From Candidatus Nealsonbacteria bacterium (lineage in GTDB: Bacteria > Patescibacteriota > Minisyncoccia > Minisyncoccales > JANBVM01), in NCBI GenBank assembly GCA_047456295.1, contig CP179887.1:45944-109943 (forward strand): a stretch of 64,000 nucleotides of DNA, given 5' to 3'. Every line of letters starts with the position of its first letter. Position 1 is the first letter of the stretch. Positions 14,192-61,690 of this stretch are shown in pieces. The position numbers and the translations under genes were made by a program. Under the pieces are notes generated by a model. It was not told the origin of the DNA. It saw only the letters and a program-made list of their open reading frames with translations, and did no database searches.

Positions 14192-14764
14192 ATGAAACAA
14201 AAAGAAGTATTATTTATTACGGGCAATAAAAGTAAATTAGCTGAGACAACTAAGATGGCTGAAAGATTCTCAGTAAAGATAGTAGGGCAAAAAGCTAATT
14301 TATTTGAGCCAATGGTATCCGATTCTACTAAAATCTTAATTGACAAAGCAAAGGATGCATATAAAAAGTTTGGTAAGCCTTTAATCGTTGATGATGCTGG
14401 TATTTACTTTGGAGCTTATCCTAATTTTCCTGGTGTATTCACGAAATTTATTATTAAGTTGCTTGGTTTTAATGGAATCATTAAGTTATTAGAAGGAAAA
14501 AGCAAAGACGCTTACTTCAAGTGCACAATTGGTTTTATTGACGAAAAGTTAGACCAGCCTCTTTTATTTGAAGGTATATCTAAGGGGAAAATAACCGAGA
14601 AAATTTCGATAAACTTCAATGGAAATTTCGAATTTAATAGTATTTTTATTCCTGAGGGAGAAAGTAAAACTTTTTCAGAAATGTCAATTGAGGAACGTAG
14701 TAAACACTGTCATAGAGATAGAGCGTTAGAGAAATTTTTAAGTTGGTATGTTAAAGAATATTAG
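14192..14764 (+). CDS. Ham1/RdgB-family non-canonical (d)NTP pyrophosphatase
   Basis: Family motifs ITGNKSKLAE, DDAGIYF, PGVFTKF and SKHCHRDRAL. Confidence 0.75.
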   Translation: MKQKEVLFITGNKSKLAETTKMAERFSVKIVGQKANLFEPMVSDSTKILIDKAKDAYKKFGKPLIVDDAGIYFGAYPNFPGVFTKFIIKLLGFNGIIKLLEGKSKDAYFKCTIGFIDEKLDQPLLFEGISKGKITEKISINFNGNFEFNSIFIPEGESKTFSEMSIEERSKHCHRDRALEKFLSWYVKEY

Positions 14765-14769
14765 TAAAA

Positions 14770-15396
14770 ATGAAATATATTAAAAAGGAAACAATTGGGG
14801 CGAGTTGGTTAAAAGCAGTAGAGGTGGTTATGGAAGAAGGAAACGATTTTTATGATCGCGATGTTAAGATAAAGGAGTTACTTGATCTTTTCATTGAGAT
14901 AAAAGATGCTCTTCTAATTGACGACGTGATAAAGAAACATGGAGATAAGTATATGATAGAACAACTAAAAATAGTTTTATTGGATACAAAACCAGGTGAG
15001 TGGGGGTGGAGTTATGGACAAAGGTTGTTTGGAGATAGTAACTATTTTAACCAAATAGAATTTATTGTAAATAAATTAAAGAGGAAACCGGAAACAAAAT
15101 CAGCTACCGTAACTTGTTTATTTCCTAAGGAGGATTTTCAGAAGGGAGCTCACATTCCATGTATTTGTCTTTTGGATTTTAAAATTAGAGATAATAGGTT
15201 GAACATGAGTGTTTGTTTAAGAAGCCAAGATATTGCTAAAAAGATGTATGGGGATGCGCTTGCTTTAGGTAAACTCATGGAAAAAGTAGCTAACGAATTA
15301 GATGTCTTGACGGGTAATCTTAAACTGTACATTATGTCGGCTCATATTTATGAAAACGAGTTTGAGAAAATGAGAAAAATAATAGGAAACTCTTAA
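14770..15396 (+). CDS. Short thymidylate-synthase-like protein 1 (Asp at the ThyA Asn177 position)
   Basis: IPC(131)ICLL...CLR(151)SQD(154)...YGD(162)...SAHIYENE. Spacing matches E. coli ThyA C146/R166/D169/N177/H207-Y209. Confidence 0.7.
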   Translation: MKYIKKETIGASWLKAVEVVMEEGNDFYDRDVKIKELLDLFIEIKDALLIDDVIKKHGDKYMIEQLKIVLLDTKPGEWGWSYGQRLFGDSNYFNQIEFIVNKLKRKPETKSATVTCLFPKEDFQKGAHIPCICLLDFKIRDNRLNMSVCLRSQDIAKKMYGDALALGKLMEKVANELDVLTGNLKLYIMSAHIYENEFEKMRKIIGNS

Positions 15397-15585
15397 AATA
15401 AATAAATTCACCATAAACATTCTGATAGTGATAAGCTTACTATAATAAGTTTATTTTTTTTATTGTTGAGCAATCCTGAAATAATATGGGTCTTGATAAT
15501 TCAAAGAAATACTGTATTATATGAATAGCTATAAGATATATTTCCAATAGCAAAGTTCTTTATAACTTAAAAGAGGTGAAATGAG

Positions 15586-16152
15586 ATAAAAGTTATATAT
15601 GTAGGAGGAGTTAAGGGTGTTGGTAAAACCTTTGTCCTTCGTGAGGTCTTTAGGCAACTATCTTTAGAAAAAGTGCCTTTTAAGAAGGCAAAAGTTGCAA
15701 AAGTTATGTTTGATCTATTAAAAAGATACGGTATGGTTGAGAAGTATGATGAGTTAGAAAATATTAGTGTCGAAATAAAAGATTGTATTCGCAAAGAATC
15801 TTTCAAAAAAATACTGAAAGATAAAAATGAAAATTTGATTTTCGATGGCCATTATTCAATATCGTCACAGTTTGGTTATGAGTATGGAATTCCATTGAAT
15901 TTTATAAAAGAAATTGATCACTTAGTATTATTATATAACAATGAAGATGTTGTTCGCAGGAGAAGGTTAGAAGATAAATCTAAAAAAAGAGAGACAAGTT
16001 TAGAGAAAGTAATAATAGACTTAATAATAGAGGAAGCGTTTGCTGAGTTTTATGCGAGATTACGGGGTAGAAAGTTAAAGAAGATAGAAACTAATAATAA
16101 AGCCAGTGTCAGTTTAAAAGATTTTATAAAGGAGGTGTTTGAAAGTGGTTAG
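15586..16152 (+). CDS. P-loop nucleoside/nucleotide kinase-like protein (archaeal Adk-like); apparent ATA start
   Basis: An in-frame Walker A (GGVKGVGKT) lies upstream of the GTG at 15673 given in the ORF track. Between the TGA at 15577 and the P-loop the only start-like codon is ATA at 15586, 7 nt after the SD AAGAGGTGA. Confidence 0.55.
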   Translation: MKVIYVGGVKGVGKTFVLREVFRQLSLEKVPFKKAKVAKVMFDLLKRYGMVEKYDELENISVEIKDCIRKESFKKILKDKNENLIFDGHYSISSQFGYEYGIPLNFIKEIDHLVLLYNNEDVVRRRRLEDKSKKRETSLEKVIIDLIIEEAFAEFYARLRGRKLKKIETNNKASVSLKDFIKEVFESG

Positions 16153-16789
16153 ATTAATAGAAGCAGATAATATTTCAGAAGCATGGTTAAAGGGATGTGA
16201 ATGTATTATAAATTACGGCTTTAGAACGAAAAGAAAAATCAAACTCCATAATTTGATTGCTGAGATTAAAAATATAACTCTAGATAAATACATAGATGAG
16301 CAATTTAGAAATTATATGAATCTAAGAATATTCAAGCGAACATTGGATATCGTTTCTTCAGATCAAAACCTCAATTCACATCCTAATTATTGGAGACGCT
16401 TGAAAGGAAAGGAAGAATTTAAGATAGACCAAGTGGCCCGCGTTATTTCCAGACTTAGAAAGCAGCCTCATTCAACCAAGCTTACCTTATGTATTTACAG
16501 CCCTAACGATTTCAAAAAGATGTATACACCTTGTATTTTATGTGCTGAATTAAGAGTGAATAAGAGGCGTCTTAATATGACCGCTTTTATCAGAAGTCAA
16601 GATTTCGCAAATAAAAGTTATGCTGATTATATAGGTTTATCATCTATTCTTAAACGAATTGGAGAGAATAGTAACATAAAACCAGGAGCAATTCTTACTC
16701 ATACTATAACCGCATTTATTGCCTATAAAGACCTAAGCCGAATGAAATCCTTTTTAAATATCATAAGGGAAAAGAAAATATCAAATTAG
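16139..16789 (+). CDS. Short thymidylate-synthase-like protein 2 (Asp at the Asn177 position; HxY motif lost)
   Basis: TPC(132)ILCA...IR(152)SQD(155)...YAD(163). The C-terminal motif is TAFIAY instead of xAHIY. Start is TTG 16139 or GTG 16145, after the SD AAGGAGGTG, and overlaps the kinase stop. Confidence 0.65.
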   Translation: MKVVRLIEADNISEAWLKGCECIINYGFRTKRKIKLHNLIAEIKNITLDKYIDEQFRNYMNLRIFKRTLDIVSSDQNLNSHPNYWRRLKGKEEFKIDQVARVISRLRKQPHSTKLTLCIYSPNDFKKMYTPCILCAELRVNKRRLNMTAFIRSQDFANKSYADYIGLSSILKRIGENSNIKPGAILTHTITAFIAYKDLSRMKSFLNIIREKKISN

Positions 16790-39343: not shown

Positions 39344-42300
39344 TCAGGCTTCCATAATCTCTTCAATGTTTTCACAGATGAGCTTTGGGGTTTCGCTTCG
39401 TCTATCAACCCTTCCTGAAACCAGAACGATTTTATTTTCCTTGAAAGCAGTAGGATTCTTTTCAATTATTGTTGGAAATACCACAACCTCAATTCTATCG
39501 GATAAATCCTCCAAAGTCATAAAAAACATGAGTCTTCCGGTTTTGGTAATAATCTTTTTTATCCTTGAAATAATTCCTCCAATCCTAACGTGACGGTTTG
39601 TTAAAGCAGGGACCAGGCTGGAAATTTTAGTTGCCTTTTTTTCTAAGATATCCTGGAAATCTTCCAAAGGATGGGAACTGACAAAAAGTCCTAACAGTTC
39701 TTTTTCCCAGGCCAGTTTTTGTCTTTTGGTAGCAGCCTCAATAGGTTGAAGATGAAGCTTATTGTTAAACTTCATTCCCTCAAAAAGCCCTTTTTGACCT
39801 GTGGTTAATATTTTTTGATTTTCCCGGCTGCAATCTAGAATCTTTTCTATGTTGAATAAAAGCAGGTTTCTTTCAACCAGTTTGTCAAAGGCACCGGCTT
39901 TAATAAGGCTTTGCAGGGATTTTTTGTTTAAATCAGTTGAACTTATCCTTAAGATAAAGTCATCTATTGACTGGAAGAGACCTTTATTTTTTCTCTCCTG
40001 GACTATGGATTCCACAATATTTGAACCAACATTTTTAATGGCCAATAATCCGAAACGAATTTGTTTTTTATTAGGAATAACCGTGAAGTTTCTCCAGCTC
40101 TGGTTTATATCAGGAGCCAGGATTTCAATGTCCATTCTTTTGCATTCCTGCATTAAAAATCCAATCCTTTCCACATCAGCCTTGCTTGAGGTTAAAAGAG
40201 CAGCCATAAATTCTACTGGAAAATGGGCTTTAAGATAAGCTGTTTGATAAGCAATAGTGGAATAGGCGCAGGAGTGGCTTCTGTTAAATCCGTAGCTGGC
40301 AAAGGGTAAAATCCATTGCCATATCTTCTGGGCAATCCTTTGTTCTATTCCGTTTTTCATCATTCCCTGGATTAGTTTTTCTTTTTGAGCCATAAGCAGG
40401 GATTTAATCTTTTTTCCAACAGCCTTTCTCAAGATGTCTGCTTCAGAAAGAGTGAAGCCTGCCAATTTTTGGGCAATGAGCATTAGGTCTTCCTGGTATA
40501 TGAGAAGGCCATAGGTTTTTCCCAGGATCTCTTTTAAGCTAGGATGTAAATATTCCACCTGTTTTTTTCCTTTTTTTCTGGCAATATATTCAGGAATAAG
40601 AGACATGGGACCTGGTCTATAAAGAGCAACCATGGTTATGATGTCTTCAAATTCAGTTGGTTTTAATTGTTTTAAGTATCGTTGAAAACCAGCTGATTCT
40701 AATTGAAAAACTCCGACTGTTTTTCCTTTTTGCAATAATTGATAGGTTTTTTTGTCGTTGAGAGGGATATTCTCAATGTCAATCTTCTTTTTCTTTCTAA
40801 CAACATAGATTCTTGTTAAGGTATCTTCAATAATGGTTAGATTCTTCAGTCCCAGGAAATCCATTTTCAGGAAACCCAGATCCTCTATTGAATGCATTTC
40901 ATATTGGGTAACAATAGTTGAATCATTCTGAGTGGGATGCTGTAAGGGAATGTCATTATCTAAGGATTCTTTTGAAATTACCACTCCGCAGGCATGGGTT
41001 GAGGCATGTCTGGCTACACCCTCCATTTTTTTTGCAAAATCAATAAGTTTTGTTGCTTTAGGATCTGTTTCATAAAGTTGTCTGAATTCAGGAATCTTTG
41101 CCAGGGTTTCATCCAGGGTAGAACCAAAAGGAATCATTTTTGCAACCCTGTCACAATAGCTATAAGCATAGTTAAGGGCTCTTCCAACATCTCTTACAGC
41201 TGCCCTGGCAGCCATTGTTCCAAAAGTAATGATTTGGGCTACCCGGTCTCTTCCGTATTTTTCAGCCACATATTCAATTACTTCATCCCTTCTTCTGTCG
41301 GTAAAATCCAAATCAATATCAGGCATTGATATGCGGGCAGGATTAAGAAATCTTTCAAATAAGAGATTATATTTCAAAGGGTCAATAGTTGTAATGCCTA
41401 AAACATAAGATACCAATGATCCCCCGACAGAACCCCTGCCTGGACCCACCACAATTCTTTTTTCTTTTGCCCAATTAACAAAATCCTGGACAATCAAAAA
41501 ATAAGAAGAAAAACCCATTTTATCAATCATGTCTAATTCATAGTTTAATCTGTCTAGGACCTCTTTTTTTGCCAGAGGCCCAAACTTTTTCTTTACTCCC
41601 TGAAGACATAAGTGCTTAATATATTCACCAGGCGTTTGGTTGTTTGGCGTTTCAAAATGAGGCAGTTTTGTTTTTCCGAGAACAAAATCAAAATTGCAGC
41701 TTTGCGCTATCCTTTGCGTATTTTCAATAGCTTGGGGTACATCCTTGAAATCTTCAATCATTTTTTCAGGAAGCCTTAAAGAAAAATCATCTGCTTTCAT
41801 GGTCAGTCTTTCCGGGTCATTGGGGTCAGATCCAGTATTAATAAGCATTAAGATGTCCTGGGCCTCTGCATCCTCTGGTCTTAAATAATGAGAGTCGTTT
41901 GTAGCTACCAGGGGAATGTTTAATTCTTTTGATATTAAGATAAGACCCTGATTGACAATTCCTTGCTCTCTTAGATTGGGATGGTGTTGTAGTTCTAAAT
42001 AAAAATTTCCTTTGCCTAAAATCTCCTGATATTTTAAAGCAGCTTTTTTAGCTGTCTCAGGTTTTTTGGCTAGAATTAACTGGGGGATTTTTCCCTGGAT
42101 ACAGGCTGATAAACCAATAAGTCCTTCTGAATAGCGGGATAATAGTTCTTCATCAATCCTGGGTTTGTAGTAAAAACCTTCCAGATGAGCTTTTGTTAAG
42201 AGTTTTACCAGATTCTTATAACCTGTTTTGTCTTTAACCAATAAAACCAAATGATATCTTCTATTATCAATGTTTGGCCTTTTTTGATGCATGCTTTCCA

Positions 42301-42517
42301 GGGCCATATATACTTCACAACCAATTATGGGCTTTATTCCTTTTTTCTTTGCCTTTTTGTAAAATTCAACTGCCCCGTAAAGAACCCCATGATCGGTTAT
42401 GGCAACAGAATCCATTCCCTGTTCTTTTACGTAATCCAAAAGTTCATCGATTTTTGGAAGGCCATCGAGCAGGGAATAATGACTATGAACGTGGAGATGG
42501 GTAAATTTTTTATCCAT
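39344..42517 (-). CDS. dnaE: DNA polymerase III alpha subunit
   Basis: PHP domain start FTHLHVHSHYSLLDG, palm PDIDLDF, and a C-terminal OB fold. Confidence 0.95.
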   Translation of the reverse strand: MDKKFTHLHVHSHYSLLDGLPKIDELLDYVKEQGMDSVAITDHGVLYGAVEFYKKAKKKGIKPIIGCEVYMALESMHQKRPNIDNRRYHLVLLVKDKTGYKNLVKLLTKAHLEGFYYKPRIDEELLSRYSEGLIGLSACIQGKIPQLILAKKPETAKKAALKYQEILGKGNFYLELQHHPNLREQGIVNQGLILISKELNIPLVATNDSHYLRPEDAEAQDILMLINTGSDPNDPERLTMKADDFSLRLPEKMIEDFKDVPQAIENTQRIAQSCNFDFVLGKTKLPHFETPNNQTPGEYIKHLCLQGVKKKFGPLAKKEVLDRLNYELDMIDKMGFSSYFLIVQDFVNWAKEKRIVVGPGRGSVGGSLVSYVLGITTIDPLKYNLLFERFLNPARISMPDIDLDFTDRRRDEVIEYVAEKYGRDRVAQIITFGTMAARAAVRDVGRALNYAYSYCDRVAKMIPFGSTLDETLAKIPEFRQLYETDPKATKLIDFAKKMEGVARHASTHACGVVISKESLDNDIPLQHPTQNDSTIVTQYEMHSIEDLGFLKMDFLGLKNLTIIEDTLTRIYVVRKKKKIDIENIPLNDKKTYQLLQKGKTVGVFQLESAGFQRYLKQLKPTEFEDIITMVALYRPGPMSLIPEYIARKKGKKQVEYLHPSLKEILGKTYGLLIYQEDLMLIAQKLAGFTLSEADILRKAVGKKIKSLLMAQKEKLIQGMMKNGIEQRIAQKIWQWILPFASYGFNRSHSCAYSTIAYQTAYLKAHFPVEFMAALLTSSKADVERIGFLMQECKRMDIEILAPDINQSWRNFTVIPNKKQIRFGLLAIKNVGSNIVESIVQERKNKGLFQSIDDFILRISSTDLNKKSLQSLIKAGAFDKLVERNLLLFNIEKILDCSRENQKILTTGQKGLFEGMKFNNKLHLQPIEAATKRQKLAWEKELLGLFVSSHPLEDFQDILEKKATKISSLVPALTNRHVRIGGIISRIKKIITKTGRLMFFMTLEDLSDRIEVVVFPTIIEKNPTAFKENKIVLVSGRVDRRSETPKLICENIEEIMEA

Positions 42518-42712
42518 GTCATTATATAAAGTTTAGCTCGCTCAGGGCGAGCATTGTATCATTTTACTTTTTTGGGTCTTCCAAGTCAAATTTTAAAAAT
42601 TATCAGATATCTTTTATAAAATTTGGACAGGCTAAGCCTGTCCAAAGAAGATAAAGTCTTAAGGCCTTATATGTAGACCTTAAGACCGCCCTATTTTTTA
42701 TTTTGAGTTTGA

Positions 42713-42774
42713 AATATAATTAAGAAATGAAATACCCAAATTTTTCTGAAGAAAAAAAGTTATGGAAAAAGGGA
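42713..42774 (+). repeat. Direct repeat, left copy (duplicated rnhB promoter and first 16 codons)
   Basis: 61 of 62 nt identical to 46250-46311; the single mismatch is at 42765/46302. Confidence 0.9.
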
Positions 42775-42801
42775 AAATCCAAACCAACATTCAGTAAATA
42801 A
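42727..42801 (+). pseudogene. Truncated duplicate of the rnhB 5' end
   Basis: Encodes MKYPNFSEEKKLWKKG, then diverges and stops after 24 codons. Confidence 0.7.
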
Positions 42802-42848
42802 AATATGCCCCATCATTATTTGGTGGGGCTTTTCTTTCAAGGATTTTC

Positions 42849-44177
42849 TTATTCTAAAAGTTCGACTTGCTCCTCTTGGGCTTCAAACTCTACTTTGCTT
42901 TCTTCATTGAAGGATGGTATGAAAAAATCTGGAGGGATTAGTTCGACCTCTGAAATGCTTAAAATTCTAATCTTTGAAGGAATAAACGAACCTGCTTCCG
43001 TCCGCCTGCCTTTAGCTTCAATGATATCTCCTCGTTGAAAATCTTTTAACTTTATCTCTTTTTTGTCCTTGTTTAAGAGCATCGTTTTCTCGGTGAGTGC
43101 CACGCTTATCTCCTTTCCTTGCTGTTCTTGTATTGTAATGACTTTGGCACTTAATGCTACATCGGTAATCCTTCCTGTCACGGTATCCAAGAGGTATTGT
43201 TCTATGTTTGTTTGATGTTCCTCGTAGGTTTTGGCAGGGTGAATCTGTCCTTCGCTGTCGTGCAGGTAGTAAAGGTATTCGCTGTCCTCTGAATTAATCA
43301 CTGCATCAATCGCTGCCAGTCCTGGATTGCAGATTGGTGCTGGCGGGCGTCCTGTGTGCAGATAGGTGTTATAAGGGGAATCGGTTTTGTATTCCTCTGG
43401 CTTCACCTTCTTCCACCAGTTGCCTGGCTCTCCCAGTGCGTATTGAACGGTGGCGTCTATTTCAAACCTCATGTCCTGCAGCCATCTGTTCCAGATGATT
43501 CCCGCAACCAGAGGCATCTGTTTTTCATTGCCTGCTTCTCTCTGAATCAGCGAGGCGAGGACAATTAAAGTGTCGTTTCTGATGTTGTTTTTTTCTGCTT
43601 CTTTAAAAAGGTCTGCCACTTCCTCATTAAACTTGTCCTTCATTCTCTCGGCTACTTCTTGGCCAGTGTAATCTACGTTGAGCAGATAGGTGTCTGGAAA
43701 CAAGTAGCCCTCTTTAGTCCAGCTGAGAAACCTTCTTTCTTCCACTTCTGGCCAACCGATTTTCTCCTGAACCATTTCTGCTATTTCTTCTTTTCTCAGC
43801 CCCTCTGGGATCACTATCCATTTCTGGTAAGGATGATTGACCAGCGTGTCGGCCAAAAACCAAGCGTCCATTCCTTTTGAGACTATGTATCCGCCTGGTT
43901 CAATTTTGCCCTGCCACCCCTTTCTTTTTAATACGAAGTTAAACGCCCACTCGCTTCTGATGTAGCCCTGCTCTTTCAGCTTAGGAATGAATTCTTCTTC
44001 TGTTGTGGCCAGGTTGATTACGATTCGTTCTTCCTCTGCTGTTCTCTGCGGTGCTGAAAACTGATAAAAAAATACAGCAATAACGATTGCTGTCGCCAGG
44101 ACTATCCCGCTTCCGATTGCTATTTTTTTATTTCTGGTTATCACTGTCATTATCTTTTTATCATAAAATAAAGTCAA
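42849..44177 (-). CDS. MltG/YceG-like endolytic transglycosylase with ~110-aa C-terminal extension (island copy)
   Basis: N-terminal TM helix, LASLIQREAG, IDATVQYALG and YNTYLHTGRPPAPICNPG motifs. Visibly more GC-rich than its surroundings. Confidence 0.75.
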   Translation of the reverse strand: MTLFYDKKIMTVITRNKKIAIGSGIVLATAIVIAVFFYQFSAPQRTAEEERIVINLATTEEEFIPKLKEQGYIRSEWAFNFVLKRKGWQGKIEPGGYIVSKGMDAWFLADTLVNHPYQKWIVIPEGLRKEEIAEMVQEKIGWPEVEERRFLSWTKEGYLFPDTYLLNVDYTGQEVAERMKDKFNEEVADLFKEAEKNNIRNDTLIVLASLIQREAGNEKQMPLVAGIIWNRWLQDMRFEIDATVQYALGEPGNWWKKVKPEEYKTDSPYNTYLHTGRPPAPICNPGLAAIDAVINSEDSEYLYYLHDSEGQIHPAKTYEEHQTNIEQYLLDTVTGRITDVALSAKVITIQEQQGKEISVALTEKTMLLNKDKKEIKLKDFQRGDIIEAKGRRTEAGSFIPSKIRILSISEVELIPPDFFIPSFNEESKVEFEAQEEQVELLE

Positions 44178-44247
44178 GGGCTTTAGTTCTAAACCAAAAA
44201 ACCTCTTTGGATTGGCAGAGATTTTTTGGTTTTAAAATTCCTAAGTT

Positions 44248-44799
44248 TTACCAATAAATTCTTGAGGCATCGGCGTAAATCCTCTTATCAGCAGGAGATC
44301 CACAATCTGTAACTATCAATCTGTCTTTCTCGGAACTCCAATAGGAGGCGAATCCGTAACAACTATATTTTCCGACGCAAGGACATGTGTGAGCGTTTGT
44401 CCATCCGTAGGTGTTGTAGTGGTCTATTTTTCCTATGCAGTAGGTCGGAATATAATCCTTGTTGTAAAAATGATAATCTGCGTATGTGACTGGATTTGTT
44501 TCATACCAGGGGATGTAAAAATACGAGTCACTATCTCCTACCCACTGGTTATTCGTGGTGAATCTCCAAGAAGCATAGTCAGCCCACCCGTAAGGCAACC
44601 ACCCTGCATCGCAATTATAACTCAGTGCACTGAAGGTGTAATAATCCGTTGAGCAAACTCTGTTTGCTGGATTGTGAATTGCCCAATAACCCGCTAAATA
44701 ACGGTCGCAGGATGTCTCGTAGCCCGCTAATACCACCCCTATTATTACTGCCACTAATGCCACTCCAAGAATTGTCGCAATAATTGTTTTCTTTCCCAT
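44248..44799 (-). CDS. Membrane-anchored Tyr/Trp/Cys-rich hypothetical protein
   Basis: N-terminal TM helix followed by a 150-aa domain with many Y, W, C, N and D residues. No known motif. Confidence 0.5.
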   Translation of the reverse strand: MGKKTIIATILGVALVAVIIGVVLAGYETSCDRYLAGYWAIHNPANRVCSTDYYTFSALSYNCDAGWLPYGWADYASWRFTTNNQWVGDSDSYFYIPWYETNPVTYADYHFYNKDYIPTYCIGKIDHYNTYGWTNAHTCPCVGKYSCYGFASYWSSEKDRLIVTDCGSPADKRIYADASRIYW

Positions 44800-44803
44800 A
44801 GTT

Positions 44804-45679
44804 TTATGGAAGCCAATTTTGGTAATTAATAATTTCTCCTTTTACTGGTTCAACCGCTACTAAAATCTGGTAATCTTTGGGTGTTTTCTCGCCTGTGGCA
44901 GGATAAATAAAAATGAAGGTGTTTCCTTTTTCTGTTGCCCGTTGAACTTCACAATTTTCTATTACCTCTTTTGCTTTTGCTTCTCCTATTGTTTTAGTCA
45001 GAAGGGTTAAAACATTTTCCCTCGCTTCTTTTTCGGTTATCTTTCCTTCTTTGTAACGGCAATTTTCGTCGAGAATGTCTTGACGGGTTTTGCACCAATT
45101 TTCTCCCCCTATTTGCAAACTGAGAATTTTGTTTTTGTCTACATCAAAATAGAAAATTCGCCCTTGCTCGTCTGTGTATTCTTCCATTACATTCTCTTTG
45201 GTGTAGGGATTTCCGCTAACTTTCTGATAGACCACATTGCTTTCTCCAAATAAATCTTTAATTTGTTTGATTGTTTCTGCTCTTTCCTCTATTGGTCTCT
45301 CTAAATTTTCTTTAATTAAATTTTCTCTGTGAATCTGTATTTCAAGGAAATCAATTTCTTTGCCTACCTCTTCTTTTAAACGAGGGGAGAAAACTATCAC
45401 ATAGGTTTCTTTATTGCTGGCGAGATACTCCATTGTCTCCAATTCTTCTCCTATTGTTTGTTTGATTCTTTGAATTTTTTCTTCTACTCCTTCTTCTCCC
45501 TTTCGGAATATTTGGATTATTCCATCTTTTTTAAAACCCAAATCTTTTTTGCCTTCTTCATAATACTGAAGGTTAGGGTCTTTTTGGTATTTCTCTGATA
45601 CTCCTATTACTATTCCTGCTGCTACTCCCACTACTAATGTTGATAAGCCAACGCCAAGTAGTATTTTTTTAATTTCCAT
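44804..45679 (-). CDS. Membrane-anchored hypothetical protein
   Basis: N-terminal TM helix with a Glu/Lys-rich soluble domain. 4-nt gap to the downstream gene. Confidence 0.5.
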   Translation of the reverse strand: MEIKKILLGVGLSTLVVGVAAGIVIGVSEKYQKDPNLQYYEEGKKDLGFKKDGIIQIFRKGEEGVEEKIQRIKQTIGEELETMEYLASNKETYVIVFSPRLKEEVGKEIDFLEIQIHRENLIKENLERPIEERAETIKQIKDLFGESNVVYQKVSGNPYTKENVMEEYTDEQGRIFYFDVDKNKILSLQIGGENWCKTRQDILDENCRYKEGKITEKEARENVLTLLTKTIGEAKAKEVIENCEVQRATEKGNTFIFIYPATGEKTPKDYQILVAVEPVKGEIINYQNWLP

Positions 45680-45965
45680 GAGTTTGTTTCTTTTAATCTT
45701 TCTTCGACCTTTGTGGTTTCCCCCTATCGCTTCGAGCCAATCCTCGCTTCGATAGTTTGTTGGGGATTCCTATCTTTTATTTTCACTTTTCCTTGAAATC
45801 AAGTCAAGGGGGTTTCTTTTTTCCCCGTGTTCGATTCTGTTGTCTCTATTCTGAATGCGTAGCCATCTTGGATGAAAATTGTAATCCTGCCAAATTTCAA
45901 TTTTCGGGCATCTTGGTATGCCTTCTTAATGATTCGCCTTGCTCTTTTTTCTCTGTTTTCTTTTT

Positions 45966-46244
45966 TTATCGGTTTGGTTCATACTTTAGCCGTTTTTTTA
46001 ATGCGATGTGCCAGTAAATAAGTGCAGTCCAGAAGTGGTCTGCTCCCGAGTTCGCCCATTCTCTTTTTTCCTGCCCGTATTTGTCGGTGACGGTTCTGGC
46101 GTAAATGGTCTGGGCATGTTTGATTAATAATTGAAAGGTTGGTGCTTCTTTTGGCATTGCGAAGGTAATGTCCCCTCTCATTAAGGCAGAGATGGTATCG
46201 TCGTAGATTCTGTTTCTTGAGGTGAACACTTTCATTAGTTTCAA
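45966..46244 (-). pseudogene. Phage terminase large-subunit C-terminal fragment
   Basis: 92-aa ORF ending ...REWANSGADHFWTALIYWHIA, which resembles the TerL nuclease-domain C-terminal motif (W..SH.DDA.DALRY). It abuts the right direct repeat. Confidence 0.5.
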
Positions 46245-46249
46245 ATTTT

Positions 46250-46311
46250 AATATAATTAAGAAATGAAATACCCAAATTTTTCTGAAGAAAAAAAGTTAT
46301 GCAAAAAGGGA
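46250..46311 (+). repeat. Direct repeat, right copy (native rnhB 5' end)
   Basis: See the left copy at 42713-42774. Confidence 0.9.
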
Positions 46312-46923
46312 TTTAAAAGAGTGGTTGGATTAGACGAGGCAGGAAGAGGACCCTTGGCAGGACCTGTGCTGGCTGGAGCAGTTATGGTCAATTCAAAATT
46401 CAGAATTAAAAATTCAAAATTAAAAGTAAACGATTCAAAAAAGCTTTCAGAGAAAAAAAGAAGAGAACTGTATAAAATTTTAGTGAATCATTCCCAGATA
46501 GAGTGGGGAATAGGCAGGGTTTCAGAAAAAGTCATTGATAGAATCAATATCCTGGAAGCCACCAAATTGGCAATGAAAAGAGCTATTAAGAATCTGGGAA
46601 AGAAATTAAAAAAGAAACAACAGAAAAAATCAGATTCAGTTGGTTTTTTAATTTTAGACGGGAGAATAAAGCTTGATTTGGATATTCCTCAGAAATCAAT
46701 CATTAAAGCTGATAACAAGGTTTTTTCCTGTGCCGCGGCATCCATTATAGCTAAGGTAAGCAGGGACAGGATAATGCAAAGGTGGGATAAAAAATACGTT
46801 AGATATGGATTCTTAAAACATAAGGGATATGCTACCAAGCTTCACCTTAAGATGTTAAAGAAATACAAACCCTGTAAGATTCACAGAAAGAGTTTCAAAC
46901 CAGTGCAGAGATTGCTTCATTAA
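46264..46923 (+). CDS. rnhB: Ribonuclease HII
   Basis: VGLDEAGRGPLAGPV active-site motif and DSKKLS. Confidence 0.9.
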   Translation: MKYPNFSEEKKLCKKGFKRVVGLDEAGRGPLAGPVLAGAVMVNSKFRIKNSKLKVNDSKKLSEKKRRELYKILVNHSQIEWGIGRVSEKVIDRINILEATKLAMKRAIKNLGKKLKKKQQKKSDSVGFLILDGRIKLDLDIPQKSIIKADNKVFSCAAASIIAKVSRDRIMQRWDKKYVRYGFLKHKGYATKLHLKMLKKYKPCKIHRKSFKPVQRLLH

Positions 46924-49562: not shown

Positions 49563-49880
49563 ATGGCAAAAGGAACAGCTGATAAAGATTTCCTTGAATT
49601 CATTATCAAGGCCTTGGTTGACAACCCAGATGATGTCAAAGTTGACCGTAGGGTTGATGAGATGGGAGTTTTACTTTCTTTAAAGGTAAACCCTGAAGAC
49701 ATGGGTCAGATCATTGGAAAGGCTGGATCTACTGCTCGGGCTATCAGAAACCTGGTTCGTATCGTCGGTCTTAAAAATCACGCTAGGGTGAATTTAAAGA
49801 TTGAGGAACCAGAAGGAGCCAGAGCTTCTCAGGGAAAGAAATCTAAAGTTGAAGAAGGACTAGAAGACTTAAAAATATAA
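49563..49880 (+). CDS. KH-domain RNA-binding protein (YlqC/KhpA-like)
   Basis: IIKALVDNPDDV...GQIIGKAGSTARAIRNLV, containing a GxxG KH motif. Confidence 0.8.
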   Translation: MAKGTADKDFLEFIIKALVDNPDDVKVDRRVDEMGVLLSLKVNPEDMGQIIGKAGSTARAIRNLVRIVGLKNHARVNLKIEEPEGARASQGKKSKVEEGLEDLKI

Positions 49881-60026: not shown

Positions 60027-60653
60027 ATGGCTTTAATCAATAACCTAATCCAACAAGGTTGGTTAAAAACACCTAAAATTATTAAGGCTTTTAAAGAAAT
60101 CAAAAGAATTGATTTTTTGCCTGAAGATTCAAAAAATCTGGCTGAATTAAATGAACCCCTACCAATAGGATATGGACAGACAATATCTCAACCATTGGTT
60201 GTAGCTTTTATGATAGAACACCTCCAACCTAAACAAGGCCATAAGATTTTAGATATTGGTTCAGGTTCAGGCTGGACAACAGCCTTGTTGTCTTACATTG
60301 TAGGACCCAAAGGAAAGGTAATAGCCATTGAAGTTATTCCAGAATTAAAGGAGTTTGGAAAGAAAAACGTATCAAAATACAACTTTATACAAAAAGGAAT
60401 AGCAGAATTTATATGTGCAGATGGTTCAAAAGGGTATGAAATAAAAGCCCCTTTCGACAACATCTTAGCCTCAGCTTCAGCCCAGGAAATTCCTCAATCC
60501 TGGAAAGAACAATTGAGGATAGGTGGCAGTATTGTAACCCCTATTAAGTCTTCCATCTGGGTTTTCACCAAAAAATCAGAAAAAGACTTTGAGGAACGGG
60601 AATATCCTGGTTTTGCTTTTGTACCACTTATAACAAAGAATGAAAACACATGA
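60027..60653 (+). CDS. pcm: Protein-L-isoaspartate O-methyltransferase
   Basis: GYGQTISQP motif and SAM motif I ILDIGSGSGW. Confidence 0.85.
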   Translation: MALINNLIQQGWLKTPKIIKAFKEIKRIDFLPEDSKNLAELNEPLPIGYGQTISQPLVVAFMIEHLQPKQGHKILDIGSGSGWTTALLSYIVGPKGKVIAIEVIPELKEFGKKNVSKYNFIQKGIAEFICADGSKGYEIKAPFDNILASASAQEIPQSWKEQLRIGGSIVTPIKSSIWVFTKKSEKDFEEREYPGFAFVPLITKNENT

Positions 60654-61690
60654 AAGAGACTAATAAATCAACAATCTTTGTTTTTTGTTTTCTTGTTTTT
60701 TTTATATTTATCTGGCAACAGATTTATCTGCCTTTAAATTCTTCTGATACTGAAGATAGATTATTTTTAATTGAAAGAGGTCAGAATCTTTTTCAAATTT
60801 CTGGAAATCTGGAAAAACAAGTGATAAAGGACAGGTTTTCGTTTAATCTTTATGTGTTTTTAAAAGGCGGTGCAGGAAGGCTTCAGGCAGGGGAATATGT
60901 TTTTAATCCTTCAATGAGCATTGCAAGGATTGCTGATAAAATAATTTCTGGTGATGTTGCAAAAGAAACCATATTGATTCCCGAAGGATGGAATTTAAAA
61001 GACATTGCCTGGTATCTGGAAAACAAAGGAATGTTTCAGGCAGAAGAACTTTTTGAATTAGTGGGTTTTCGCTTGATTGATTACTCCCACAATAGTGATT
61101 TGCCAGAACTCAAGGATTTTAGTTCAGATCATGATTTTTTAACTGATAAACCCAAGAATATAGGATTGGAGGGTTATCTTTTTCCTGACACCTATGAAAT
61201 AAAAAGGAATAGCAGTTTGGAAGAGATTGTTAGGAAAATACTGGATAATTTTGGCAAGAAATTAAGTGGAGAATTAAGGGAAGAAATAAAAAGACAGGAA
61301 AAAACAATCTTTGAAATAATAACAATAGCTTCTTTAATAGAAAAAGAAGTTAAAACACCTGAAGAGAAAAAAATAGTTTCTGGAATCTTATGGAAAAGAT
61401 TGAAAAACAAAATACCTTTGCAGGTTGACGCTACCATAAACTATATTACTGGTAAAAAAACAACAAAGGTTTTAATACAAGAAACCAAGATTGATTCTCC
61501 TTATAACACCTATAAATATGGAGGATTACCTTTGGGTCCCATCTGCAACCCTGGAATTGAAAGCATTATATCAGCCCTCTATCCTGAAAGCAGTGAATAT
61601 TCTTATTATCTGTCTACTTCTGAAGGAGAAACCCTTTTTAGTAAAACCCTGGAAGAACATAATTTAAAAAAAGCTCAGTATCTTAAATAA
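60650..61690 (+). CDS. mltG: Endolytic murein transglycosylase MltG (native copy)
   Basis: ASLIEKE, VDATINY and YNTYKYGGLPLGPICNPG motifs. Confidence 0.85.
   Translation: MKETNKSTIFVFCFLVFFIFIWQQIYLPLNSSDTEDRLFLIERGQNLFQISGNLEKQVIKDRFSFNLYVFLKGGAGRLQAGEYVFNPSMSIARIADKIISGDVAKETILIPEGWNLKDIAWYLENKGMFQAEELFELVGFRLIDYSHNSDLPELKDFSSDHDFLTDKPKNIGLEGYLFPDTYEIKRNSSLEEIVRKILDNFGKKLSGELREEIKRQEKTIFEIITIASLIEKEVKTPEEKKIVSGILWKRLKNKIPLQVDATINYITGKKTTKVLIQETKIDSPYNTYKYGGLPLGPICNPGIESIISALYPESSEYSYYLSTSEGETLFSKTLEEHNLKKAQYLK

Follow-up and report, generated by a model that had tools for sequence, protein, structure and literature searches.

A decayed prophage fragment with a putative envelope gene module at the 5' end of rnhB in a Candidatus Nealsonbacteria chromosome

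Results

The ribonuclease HII (RNase HII) gene rnhB of a Candidatus Nealsonbacteria bacterium is separated from its divergently oriented neighbor dnaE by a 3,475-bp insert (42775-46249), which is bracketed by a 62-bp direct repeat of the rnhB 5' end (Table 1). We analyzed this locus within a window of 64,000 nt from contig CP179887.1, and all coordinates are positions in that window. A sequence-only reading of the same DNA had proposed a foreign, phage-derived element, namely, a degraded prophage or integrative element that used the rnhB 5' end as its attachment (att) site. We conclude that the insert is a decayed prophage fragment, an element of a well-known kind. The phage-remnant part of the earlier proposal thus holds, whereas the att site is plausible but unproven, and neither an attP nor recurrent use of the site was found.

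Table 1. Features of the insert and its flanks in window coordinates
Feature	Coordinates	Strand	Details
dnaE (DNA polymerase III alpha, 1057 aa), host gene, left flank	39344..42517	-	Open reading frame (ORF) and DnaE identity
Left repeat copy	42713..42774	+	TATAAT 42715-42720, ATG 42727, rnhB codons 1-16, Trp13 (TGG)
rnhB stub	42727..42801	+	24 codons, MKYPNFSEEKKLWKKGKSKPTFSK then stop; direct reading
G+C-rich hairpin, T-runs on both strands	42807..42829	.	Terminator-like; downstream of MltG2 (-) and stub (+)
MltG2, predicted membrane-anchored MltG/YceG endolytic transglycosylase	42849..44177	-	Likely start ATG 44150 (433 aa)
Promoter-like TTGACT-17-GATAAT	44149..44177	-	Just before MltG2 start; 10/12 matches
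orf183	44248..44799	-	N-terminal transmembrane (TM) helix and Cys/Trp/Tyr-rich ectodomain; rare orphan family
orf291	44804..45679	-	N-terminal TM helix and YpeB/PepSY-like ectodomain
Promoter-like TTGACT-17-GAAAAT	45779..45807	-	Upstream of orf291
DUF2292/YezD-like pseudogene	45799..45982	-	ATG 45982; MNQTDKK; +1 frameshift in A7 run; DUF2292 frame to 45799
terL 3' fragment	45966..46249	-	Last 89 codons of a 517-aa TerL; 13 nt by the repeat degenerate
Right repeat copy	46250..46311	+	TATAAT 46252-46257, ATG 46264, codons 1-16, Cys13 (TGC)
rnhB (RNase HII, 219 aa), intact	46264..46923	+	Pfam RNase_HII 1.5e-37; NCBIfam 8.5e-69

A direct repeat of the rnhB start brackets the insert

The two repeat copies are identical at 61 of 62 nt (77 nt at 91% when the 15 nt to their left are included), and each consists of 14 nt of upstream sequence (AATATAATTAAGAA) followed by rnhB codons 1-16, that is, the ATG and 15 more, which is the anatomy that the sequence-only reading had described. 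All exact repeats of at least 24 nt in the window belong to this pair, which excludes a chance origin of the repeat, and the same is true of exact repeats of at least 20 nt among those listed. The left copy reads MKYPNFSEEKKLWKKG followed by KSKPTFSK and a stop, so that it enters foreign sequence and ends after 24 codons, giving the stub noticed earlier. Through the lone mismatch between the copies, the stub has the conserved Trp13, whereas the working rnhB has Cys at this position; among relatives, this residue is Trp in 50 of 58 and Cys in none.

Conservation at the nucleotide level begins at 42713-42715 in many relatives, and the repeat therefore starts only 0 to 2 nt from the onset of interspecies conservation of the rnhB 5' unit. 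The repeat thus takes in the conserved 5' unit of rnhB, beginning at the upstream boundary of that unit and ending with codon 16. Within it, a TATAAT box precedes the rnhB ATG by 6 nt, without a Shine-Dalgarno sequence, and this element (46252-46266 and, in the left copy, 42715-42729) is conserved at the nucleotide level across many relatives. Such an arrangement suggests that the rnhB mRNA of this lineage is leaderless or nearly so.

Two minus-strand terminator-like hairpins (42622-42687) lie between the left repeat copy and a promoter-like site of dnaE (42561-42589). Their presence is odd, since the same divergent promoter region spans 11 to 150 nt in many relatives, and the pair may date from a previous event at the rnhB site.

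The insert is compositionally deviant and cannot move by itself

All reading frames of the insert lie on the minus strand, and the earlier impression of a G+C-rich block was borne out. Its G+C content is 40.4%, compared with 34.7 ± 1.8% in 536 other 3.5-kb windows, none of which was higher (z, 3.25), and its tetranucleotide distance was the largest of the window and was reached by none of 216 other windows, making it the most deviant segment in both of the composition checks that had been proposed. A motif, CCCTTGACTT, lies upstream of MltG2 and recurs before orf291 (repeat family D7). The terminator-like hairpin downstream of MltG2 and the stub was listed on the plus strand, and its minus-strand T-rich tail was read from the sequence.

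No inverted repeats pairing the two ends of the insert were found, and Pfam detected no transposase or recombinase domain in its ORFs. A transposon or insertion sequence was therefore ruled out by the lack of terminal inverted repeats and of a transposase and by a duplication of 62 bp. When the window was searched with reference-phage proteins, only TerL and MltG matched and no phage integrase was found, in agreement with the earlier statement that no integrase remains. The element has no capacity to move by itself.

Two dead phage genes tie the insert to a temperate phage family

The gene that abuts the right repeat had been read as the C-terminal fragment of a terminase large subunit, and our searches support this. 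The fragment matches positions 473-550 of 576 of phrog_675 (E value, 3e-7) and is 93% identical in amino acid sequence to residues 429-517 of a phage TerL; in nucleotide alignments, homology to phage terL fades only within about 13 nt of 46250. In-frame stop codons lie just upstream. With residues 429-517 alone, the predicted product is a fragment of a gene rather than a terminase. The adjoining DUF2292/YezD-like frame had been described as lacking a start. Its family assignment stands (Pfam E value, 2e-5; 24.5 bits against a cutoff of 22 bits), but the frame is not without a start: it has an ATG, and just after MNQTDKK an additional A in an A7 run disrupts it. The same A7 run is present in independent Logan contigs. 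In two phages (L001 and L002), intact ATG-started DUF2292 orthologues of 57 aa overlap the end of terL by 17 nt, as they do here.

The terL piece retrieved six IMG/VR contigs of 11 to 35 kb, five of them of 33 to 35 kb, with 66 to 93% amino acid identity, and five of the six (L001-L005) are colinear with the insert in the order terL, DUF2292, membrane ORFs, and MltG. It is this shared gene order, together with the terL identity, that identifies the insert as foreign and phage derived. We rebuilt one complete phage contig of 33,774 bp and 43% G+C. It carries a ParB-methyltransferase gene, terL, DUF2292, cargo genes, and MltG, followed through its structural region by an SU10-type portal, a major capsid protein, and tail genes; it also has a small membrane protein gene followed by an Amidase_2 gene (1e-20) for lysis, a methylase/helicase pair, an SDH-type protease, and a tyrosine integrase (PF00589, 3.9e-25). 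Since the tyrosine integrase is kept in three further phage contigs as well, the family is temperate. Judged from gene content and order, the insert is the leftover of a phage from a temperate, Parcubacteria-infecting family with genomes of about 34 kb, an SU10-like capsid and portal, and a tyrosine integrase. Prophages in Paceibacteria have been reported earlier (PMC12455944).

The separate lysis genes also bear on the suggestion that MltG might be an endolysin. These phages pair a small TM protein with Amidase_2 and carry MltG in a variable cargo slot, and MltG is not the endolysin of the family. The slot between terL and the portal gene (L001-L006 and L114-L136) is hypervariable, spans 2.9 to 7 kb, and encodes almost exclusively N-terminally membrane-anchored proteins; in L006, it holds a sigma/anti-sigma-like pair.

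Several further observations concern this phage family and its relatives. A KhpA-type KH-domain gene occurs in the phages (L003:402-701, L114:1218-1535, L115:4033-4359, and L136:6056-6337) and resembles the host khpA at 49563-49880 of the window. The copy at the left end of L003 was considered as host flanking DNA and rejected, because the gene is kept in six phage contigs and is thus phage encoded. In two other phages (L103:19154-19460 and L104:12972-13684), noncoding DNA of 0.3 to 0.7 kb lies upstream of the integrase gene and is 83% identical over 234 nt between them. This noncoding phage DNA had no match in Rfam, in ARAGORN (tRNA), or in host DNA, and the conserved stretch is a candidate attP or regulatory region. 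Related prophages in four other loci (L107:1180-3964, L128, L130, and L137) have the order terL, orf189, HTH_17 excisionase, and large serine recombinase. In all four, the recombinase gene runs with its 3' end into the start of host ychF, placing these prophages at the 5' end of a housekeeping gene, and another related prophage adjoins the 3' end of secA.

We also looked for other truncated terL remnants among 27 metagenome loci with enough upstream sequence, and all but one had full-length terL. The exception (L139:1575-2438; Ga0172369_10071300) is a 79-aa ORF whose last 35 residues correspond to the TerL C terminus and whose remainder is unrelated. A serine recombinase gene follows 43 nt downstream of this ORF, which also neighbors host proS/csaA-like genes.

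The block is absent from relatives, and both of its junctions occur in reads

We scanned species-representative genomes with the N-terminal 400 aa of DnaE, which returned 80 loci from Nealsonbacteria/Staskawiczbacteria-type genomes with 62 to 85% identity. In 60 of the 80, rnhB lies divergently upstream of dnaE, with a start-codon spacing of at most 150 nt in 26 relatives and at most 1 kb in 46. None of these 60 relatives carries terL, DUF2292, orf291, orf183, or a phage-type MltG at the locus. The search for the empty site that had been proposed therefore shows a derived, lineage-specific insertion.

This distribution argues strongly against the notion that the block consists of ordinary Nealsonbacteria genes that are merely shared with the phages. 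That notion draws on MltG2-type genes and an orf291-orf183 pair that occur in chromosomes of the Candidate Phyla Radiation (CPR) away from phage genes. However, the insert holds a terL tail 93% identical in amino acid sequence to a phage terminase and a phage-type DUF2292 in phage order, is missing at the locus in all relatives, deviates in composition, and lies between duplicated copies of host sequence. A native origin is effectively refuted by the phage terL match, the gene order, and the absence from relatives, and we give it almost no credence.

Wide dnaE-rnhB gaps in four relatives (L016, L055, L059, and L079) were considered as analogous insertions and rejected, because ordinary genes lie within them. 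A "split" rnhB in a fifth (L054:95-1867; JAHIOM010000014.1) was likewise rejected as a probable intein. There, the rnhB ORF is 590 aa long and breaks right after DEAGRG into CERSDAEVL..., and the RnhB sequence resumes about 370 residues on; an intein probably interrupts RNase HII there, in the region of its active site.

Because the two repeat copies share an identical 53-mer, it was conceivable that the locus had been misassembled, such that the empty dnaE-rnhB site is real and a separate molecule sharing the 62-mer was threaded in by the assembler. Short-k graphs are blind to topology across a shared stretch of 53 nt, and Logan unitigs do stop there; the Logan contig ends that fall inside the repeat lie at points where the shared 53-mer forces a k=31 graph to branch. 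The insert is nevertheless an exact substring of two Logan assemblies, DRR463593 (L095; 42735-46279) and DRR463592 (L096; 43312-46279). The former holds both the terL/repeat junction and the junction between the repeat with G and the insert, and the latter holds the terL/repeat junction only. Given that both junction sequences occur in DRR463593, both are real in the reads. In addition, a separate 3.5-kb molecule would have no replication function, and the source contig is 689 kb long. We therefore consider a misassembly very unlikely. A 28-mer from the repeat core had no matches in metagenome contigs.

Three intact genes form a putative envelope module

The largest gene of the insert, MltG2, had been recognized as a second MltG-like transglycosylase with an extra C-terminal domain, and both parts of that description hold. 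It matches YceG (PF02618) with an E value of 6e-71 (239.6 bits; cutoff, 32.4 bits) and TIGR00247 with an E value of 1.2e-44 (152.8 bits; cutoff, 103.4 bits), and it aligns to Lmo1499 (4iiw) and Escherichia coli MltG (2r1f). The start at 44150 is also used by the Logan gene call. Exact look-ups of the RnhB and MltG2 proteins returned no existing record. A basic stretch followed by the hydrophobic segment IAIGSGIVLATAIVIAVFFY at the N terminus makes up a single membrane anchor, after which come the catalytic region (aa 55-326), a beta-rich C-terminal extension (aa 330-404), and a unique tail of 38 aa. The motif LIQREA falls on IIEKET/IIEKEA of 2r1f and 4iiw with the second Glu, at the catalytic position, kept; we take this residue to be E218 of E. 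coli MltG. The E218Q variant of MltG has been used in the literature (PMC8135044).

MltG2 is only 30% identical to the housekeeping MltG encoded at 60650-61690 in the window, compared with 50 to 69% identity to the phage MltGs and 65 to 88% to thousands of CPR proteins. Proteins of the MltG2 type, with 60 to 88% identity, abound in metagenomes. Many genes of the MltG2 type stand alone in CPR chromosomes, in unrelated contexts. The C-terminal extension is common to many of the CPR homologues, up to residue 404, and had no relative in viral contigs.

The other two genes had been called membrane-anchored orphans, an apt description, as both have an N-terminal hydrophobic anchor and neither has a family match. 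For orf183, there was no match in Pfam, PHROG, or NCBIfam; its family comprises only three representative clusters among 1.84 billion proteins, and a single-sequence AlphaFold2 (AF2) model was unusable, with a predicted local distance difference test (pLDDT) score of 39.5. The orf291 product, identical (100%) to NCBI protein ACKKMR_00585 from a Candidatus Nealsonbacteria metagenome-assembled genome, likewise had no sequence-family match and has only four homologues among 5.8 billion proteins. An AlphaFold model built from four homologues reached a pLDDT of 72. The likeness of the ectodomain to YpeB/PepSY proteins is not one of sequence, since orf291 is only 12% identical to YpeB and has no Pfam PepSY match.

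Homologues of orf183 always come after a homologue of orf291. The pair lies between recR and rplU in another CPR genome (50% and 48% identity) and is present in L097; the full trio of orf291, orf183, and MltG occurs on a Logan contig (L112) beside a response regulator gene, and distant versions of orf291 and orf183 precede MltG in phages L002 and L003. Given this recurrence in both CPR chromosomes and phages, the three genes make up a conserved envelope module that these phages and their hosts exchange.

All three genes are intact, with promoter-like sites and a terminator of their own, and the module may well be expressed and functional. By analogy, the closest parallel is SleB-YpeB of Bacillus spores, in which a lytic transglycosylase works with a membrane-anchored PepSY partner (structure 5boi). 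The insert differs in that its enzyme is of the MltG/YceG type, its YpeB-like protein is distant, and a Cys-rich third protein stands between the two. On the strength of likeness rather than demonstrated membership, the PepSY-like orf291 product could partner or restrain MltG2 at the membrane. The present activity of the insert is likely to be that of a second, PepSY-partnered cutter of peptidoglycan glycan strands expressed at the host membrane.

Discussion

Phage-host gene flow is poorly documented in CPR bacteria, and their genomes are so small that each foreign gene kept is informative. The insert is a clean, datable case of phage DNA fixed in a Nealsonbacteria chromosome, it ties that genome to a specific temperate phage family of about 34 kb in IMG/VR, and its three-gene module is a concrete candidate for a route by which phages remodel the cell wall of CPR bacteria. 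The position of terL directly against a 62-bp duplication of the host promoter and start codon is a small mechanistic puzzle, rather than a new kind of system.

We tentatively favor integration of the phage at an att site in the 5' end of rnhB, followed by deletions. In such a scenario, a phage would have integrated at the rnhB 5' end, and its attachment site would have brought its own rnhB start, comprising the -10 box (TATAAT), the start codon, and 16 codons. Recombination near codon 16 would have left rnhB intact behind the phage-supplied start (the right copy, with Cys13), and the original start would have been orphaned as the 24-codon stub (the left copy, with Trp13), such that the repeats would represent attL and attR. 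About 30 kb, including the integrase gene, the structural genes, and the first 428 terL codons, would have been lost later, leaving a dead terL tail, a frameshifted DUF2292, and three intact envelope genes that were once cargo between terL and the portal gene.

Several observations make the rnhB 5' end plausible as an att site. The phage family encodes tyrosine integrases, and housekeeping gene ends do harbor related prophages, one type with a serine integrase at the start of ychF and another prophage at the 3' end of secA. The repeat, from the TATAAT box to codon 16, is the very unit that a phage would need to bring to keep rnhB alive. Trp13 in the stub and Cys13 in the gene are also what would be expected if the incoming DNA gave the working copy its first ~54 nt, and a crossover in the last 8 nt of the repeat would fit this pattern.

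Other observations weigh against integration at an att site. Only 0 to 13 nt separate phage terL DNA from the right repeat, and the site has neither a phage arm nor an adjoining integrase gene. In the reference phage, about 5 kb separates the terL breakpoint from the integrase gene upstream of it, and MltG is followed by the portal gene, so that two deletions would be required, both stopping precisely at the border of the 62-bp block (or one, if attP lay just after MltG). The noncoding DNA that flanks the integrase genes of four related phages is unlike the rnhB site, and none of the 60 relatives has any integration at the 5' end of rnhB, so recurrent use of the site was not seen. Neither a 52-mer nor a degenerate RnhB N-terminus pattern was found in any viral contig, a weak objection given that the parent phage is absent from the collections: no closer parent was found there, and a metagenome scan gave terL identities of at most 92%. 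We also rejected an attP inside terL and a join guided by terL/rnhB homeology, because six phage terL segments align to the site no better than shuffled sequences do and the repeat has stop codons in the terL frame.

The tightness of the junctions is better accommodated by two other explanations, both of which lack a known mechanism or origin. The first, a possibility that we take seriously but rate below att integration, is that a 3.5-kb internal phage fragment was joined at rnhB codon 16 in a single illegitimate event, involving neither an integrase nor an att site. The fragment could, for example, have come from infecting phage DNA by breakage, cleavage, or template-switch copying, and the duplication would have come from fill-in of a staggered break or from a fork returning 62 bp behind its exit point; only events that duplicated the -10 box and start codon would have kept rnhB working and survived. 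A single event accounts for junctions that are tight on both sides (terL to the right repeat, and insert directly after the left repeat), for an arbitrary breakpoint in the middle of terL, for a fragment that is one contiguous stretch of the phage map, and for the lack of a recombination gene and of an attP, and it fits with the absence of any other integration at rnhB among relatives. However, no bacterial mechanism known to us would produce a target duplication of 62 bp. There is no detectable microhomology or homeology between the phage terL breakpoint and the host site, in a comparison from which the true parent sequence is absent, and it would be mere coincidence that the duplication begins, on its left, no more than 2 nt from where the conserved rnhB 5' block does. 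In addition, the mismatch stands in the copy under selection rather than in the free stub.

The second explanation, which we consider unlikely, is that the chromosomal rnhB start recombined with a circle of about 3.54 kb that included a single copy of the 62-bp host segment. Excision from a like insertion in another strain, or aberrant excision of a prophage, could have produced the circle, and it could have entered by RecA (Campbell-type) recombination or through a related phage integrase acting in trans on a cis-mobilizable remnant. A single crossover would add exactly what is seen, 3,537 bp made up of the insert and one repeat unit, with no further deletions needed, and a stretch of 53 identical bp could suffice for occasional homologous exchange. 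The single-nucleotide difference is consistent with a right copy supplied by incoming DNA, and the break of the Logan graph at the shared 53-mer is compatible with a circular form. Yet the first joining of a host segment to the terL-MltG fragment is merely pushed back, a free circle without a replication gene could not persist, and no second occurrence of the element was found anywhere searched.

Returning to integration at an att site, a bolder version, to which we give little weight, is that the 62-bp block is an att site of new design. A CPR phage would then target the first 16 codons of the RNase HII gene and bring a -10 box and a start codon of its own to replace those of a leaderless gene, and the remnant would be an att-flanked mini-element with cargo only, still open to excision and movement in trans by related phages. 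If this were true, it would offer a way for the YpeB-like/MltG module to spread between phages and streamlined CPR genomes, where free-standing copies occur.

Several known systems invite comparison with the insert. In E. coli, e14 and phage 21 are elements flanked by attL and attR at the 3' end of icd. Like remnants of that type, the insert is phage DNA within a host repeat of tens of base pairs, has lost most phage genes, and left its target gene saved by a duplicated end with a point difference. Unlike them, it duplicates a 5' end that includes the -10 box and start codon, it has neither an integrase nor an att arm, its terL fragment touches the repeat, and no cognate attP is known. The cis-mobilizable elements (CIMEs) of the Streptococcus ICESt family are att-flanked derivatives of integrative elements without recombination genes, and the insert resembles them in being short, limited to cargo, flanked by two att-like repeats, and devoid of an integrase; in contrast to CIMEs, no related functional element using the rnhB site was found. 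Finally, like phage morons (here, terminase-portal cargo), the insert carries envelope genes with their own promoter-like sites and terminator from a hypervariable slot, whereas its cargo has outlived the phage and is also free-standing in other CPR chromosomes.

One other segment of the window stood out in composition. The runner-up in tetranucleotide deviance (14192-16789) encodes Ham1 (dITP/XTP pyrophosphatase), two thymidylate-synthase-like ORFs of about 210 aa, and an AAA_17 kinase, and this cluster could be a nucleotide-modification or foreign module.

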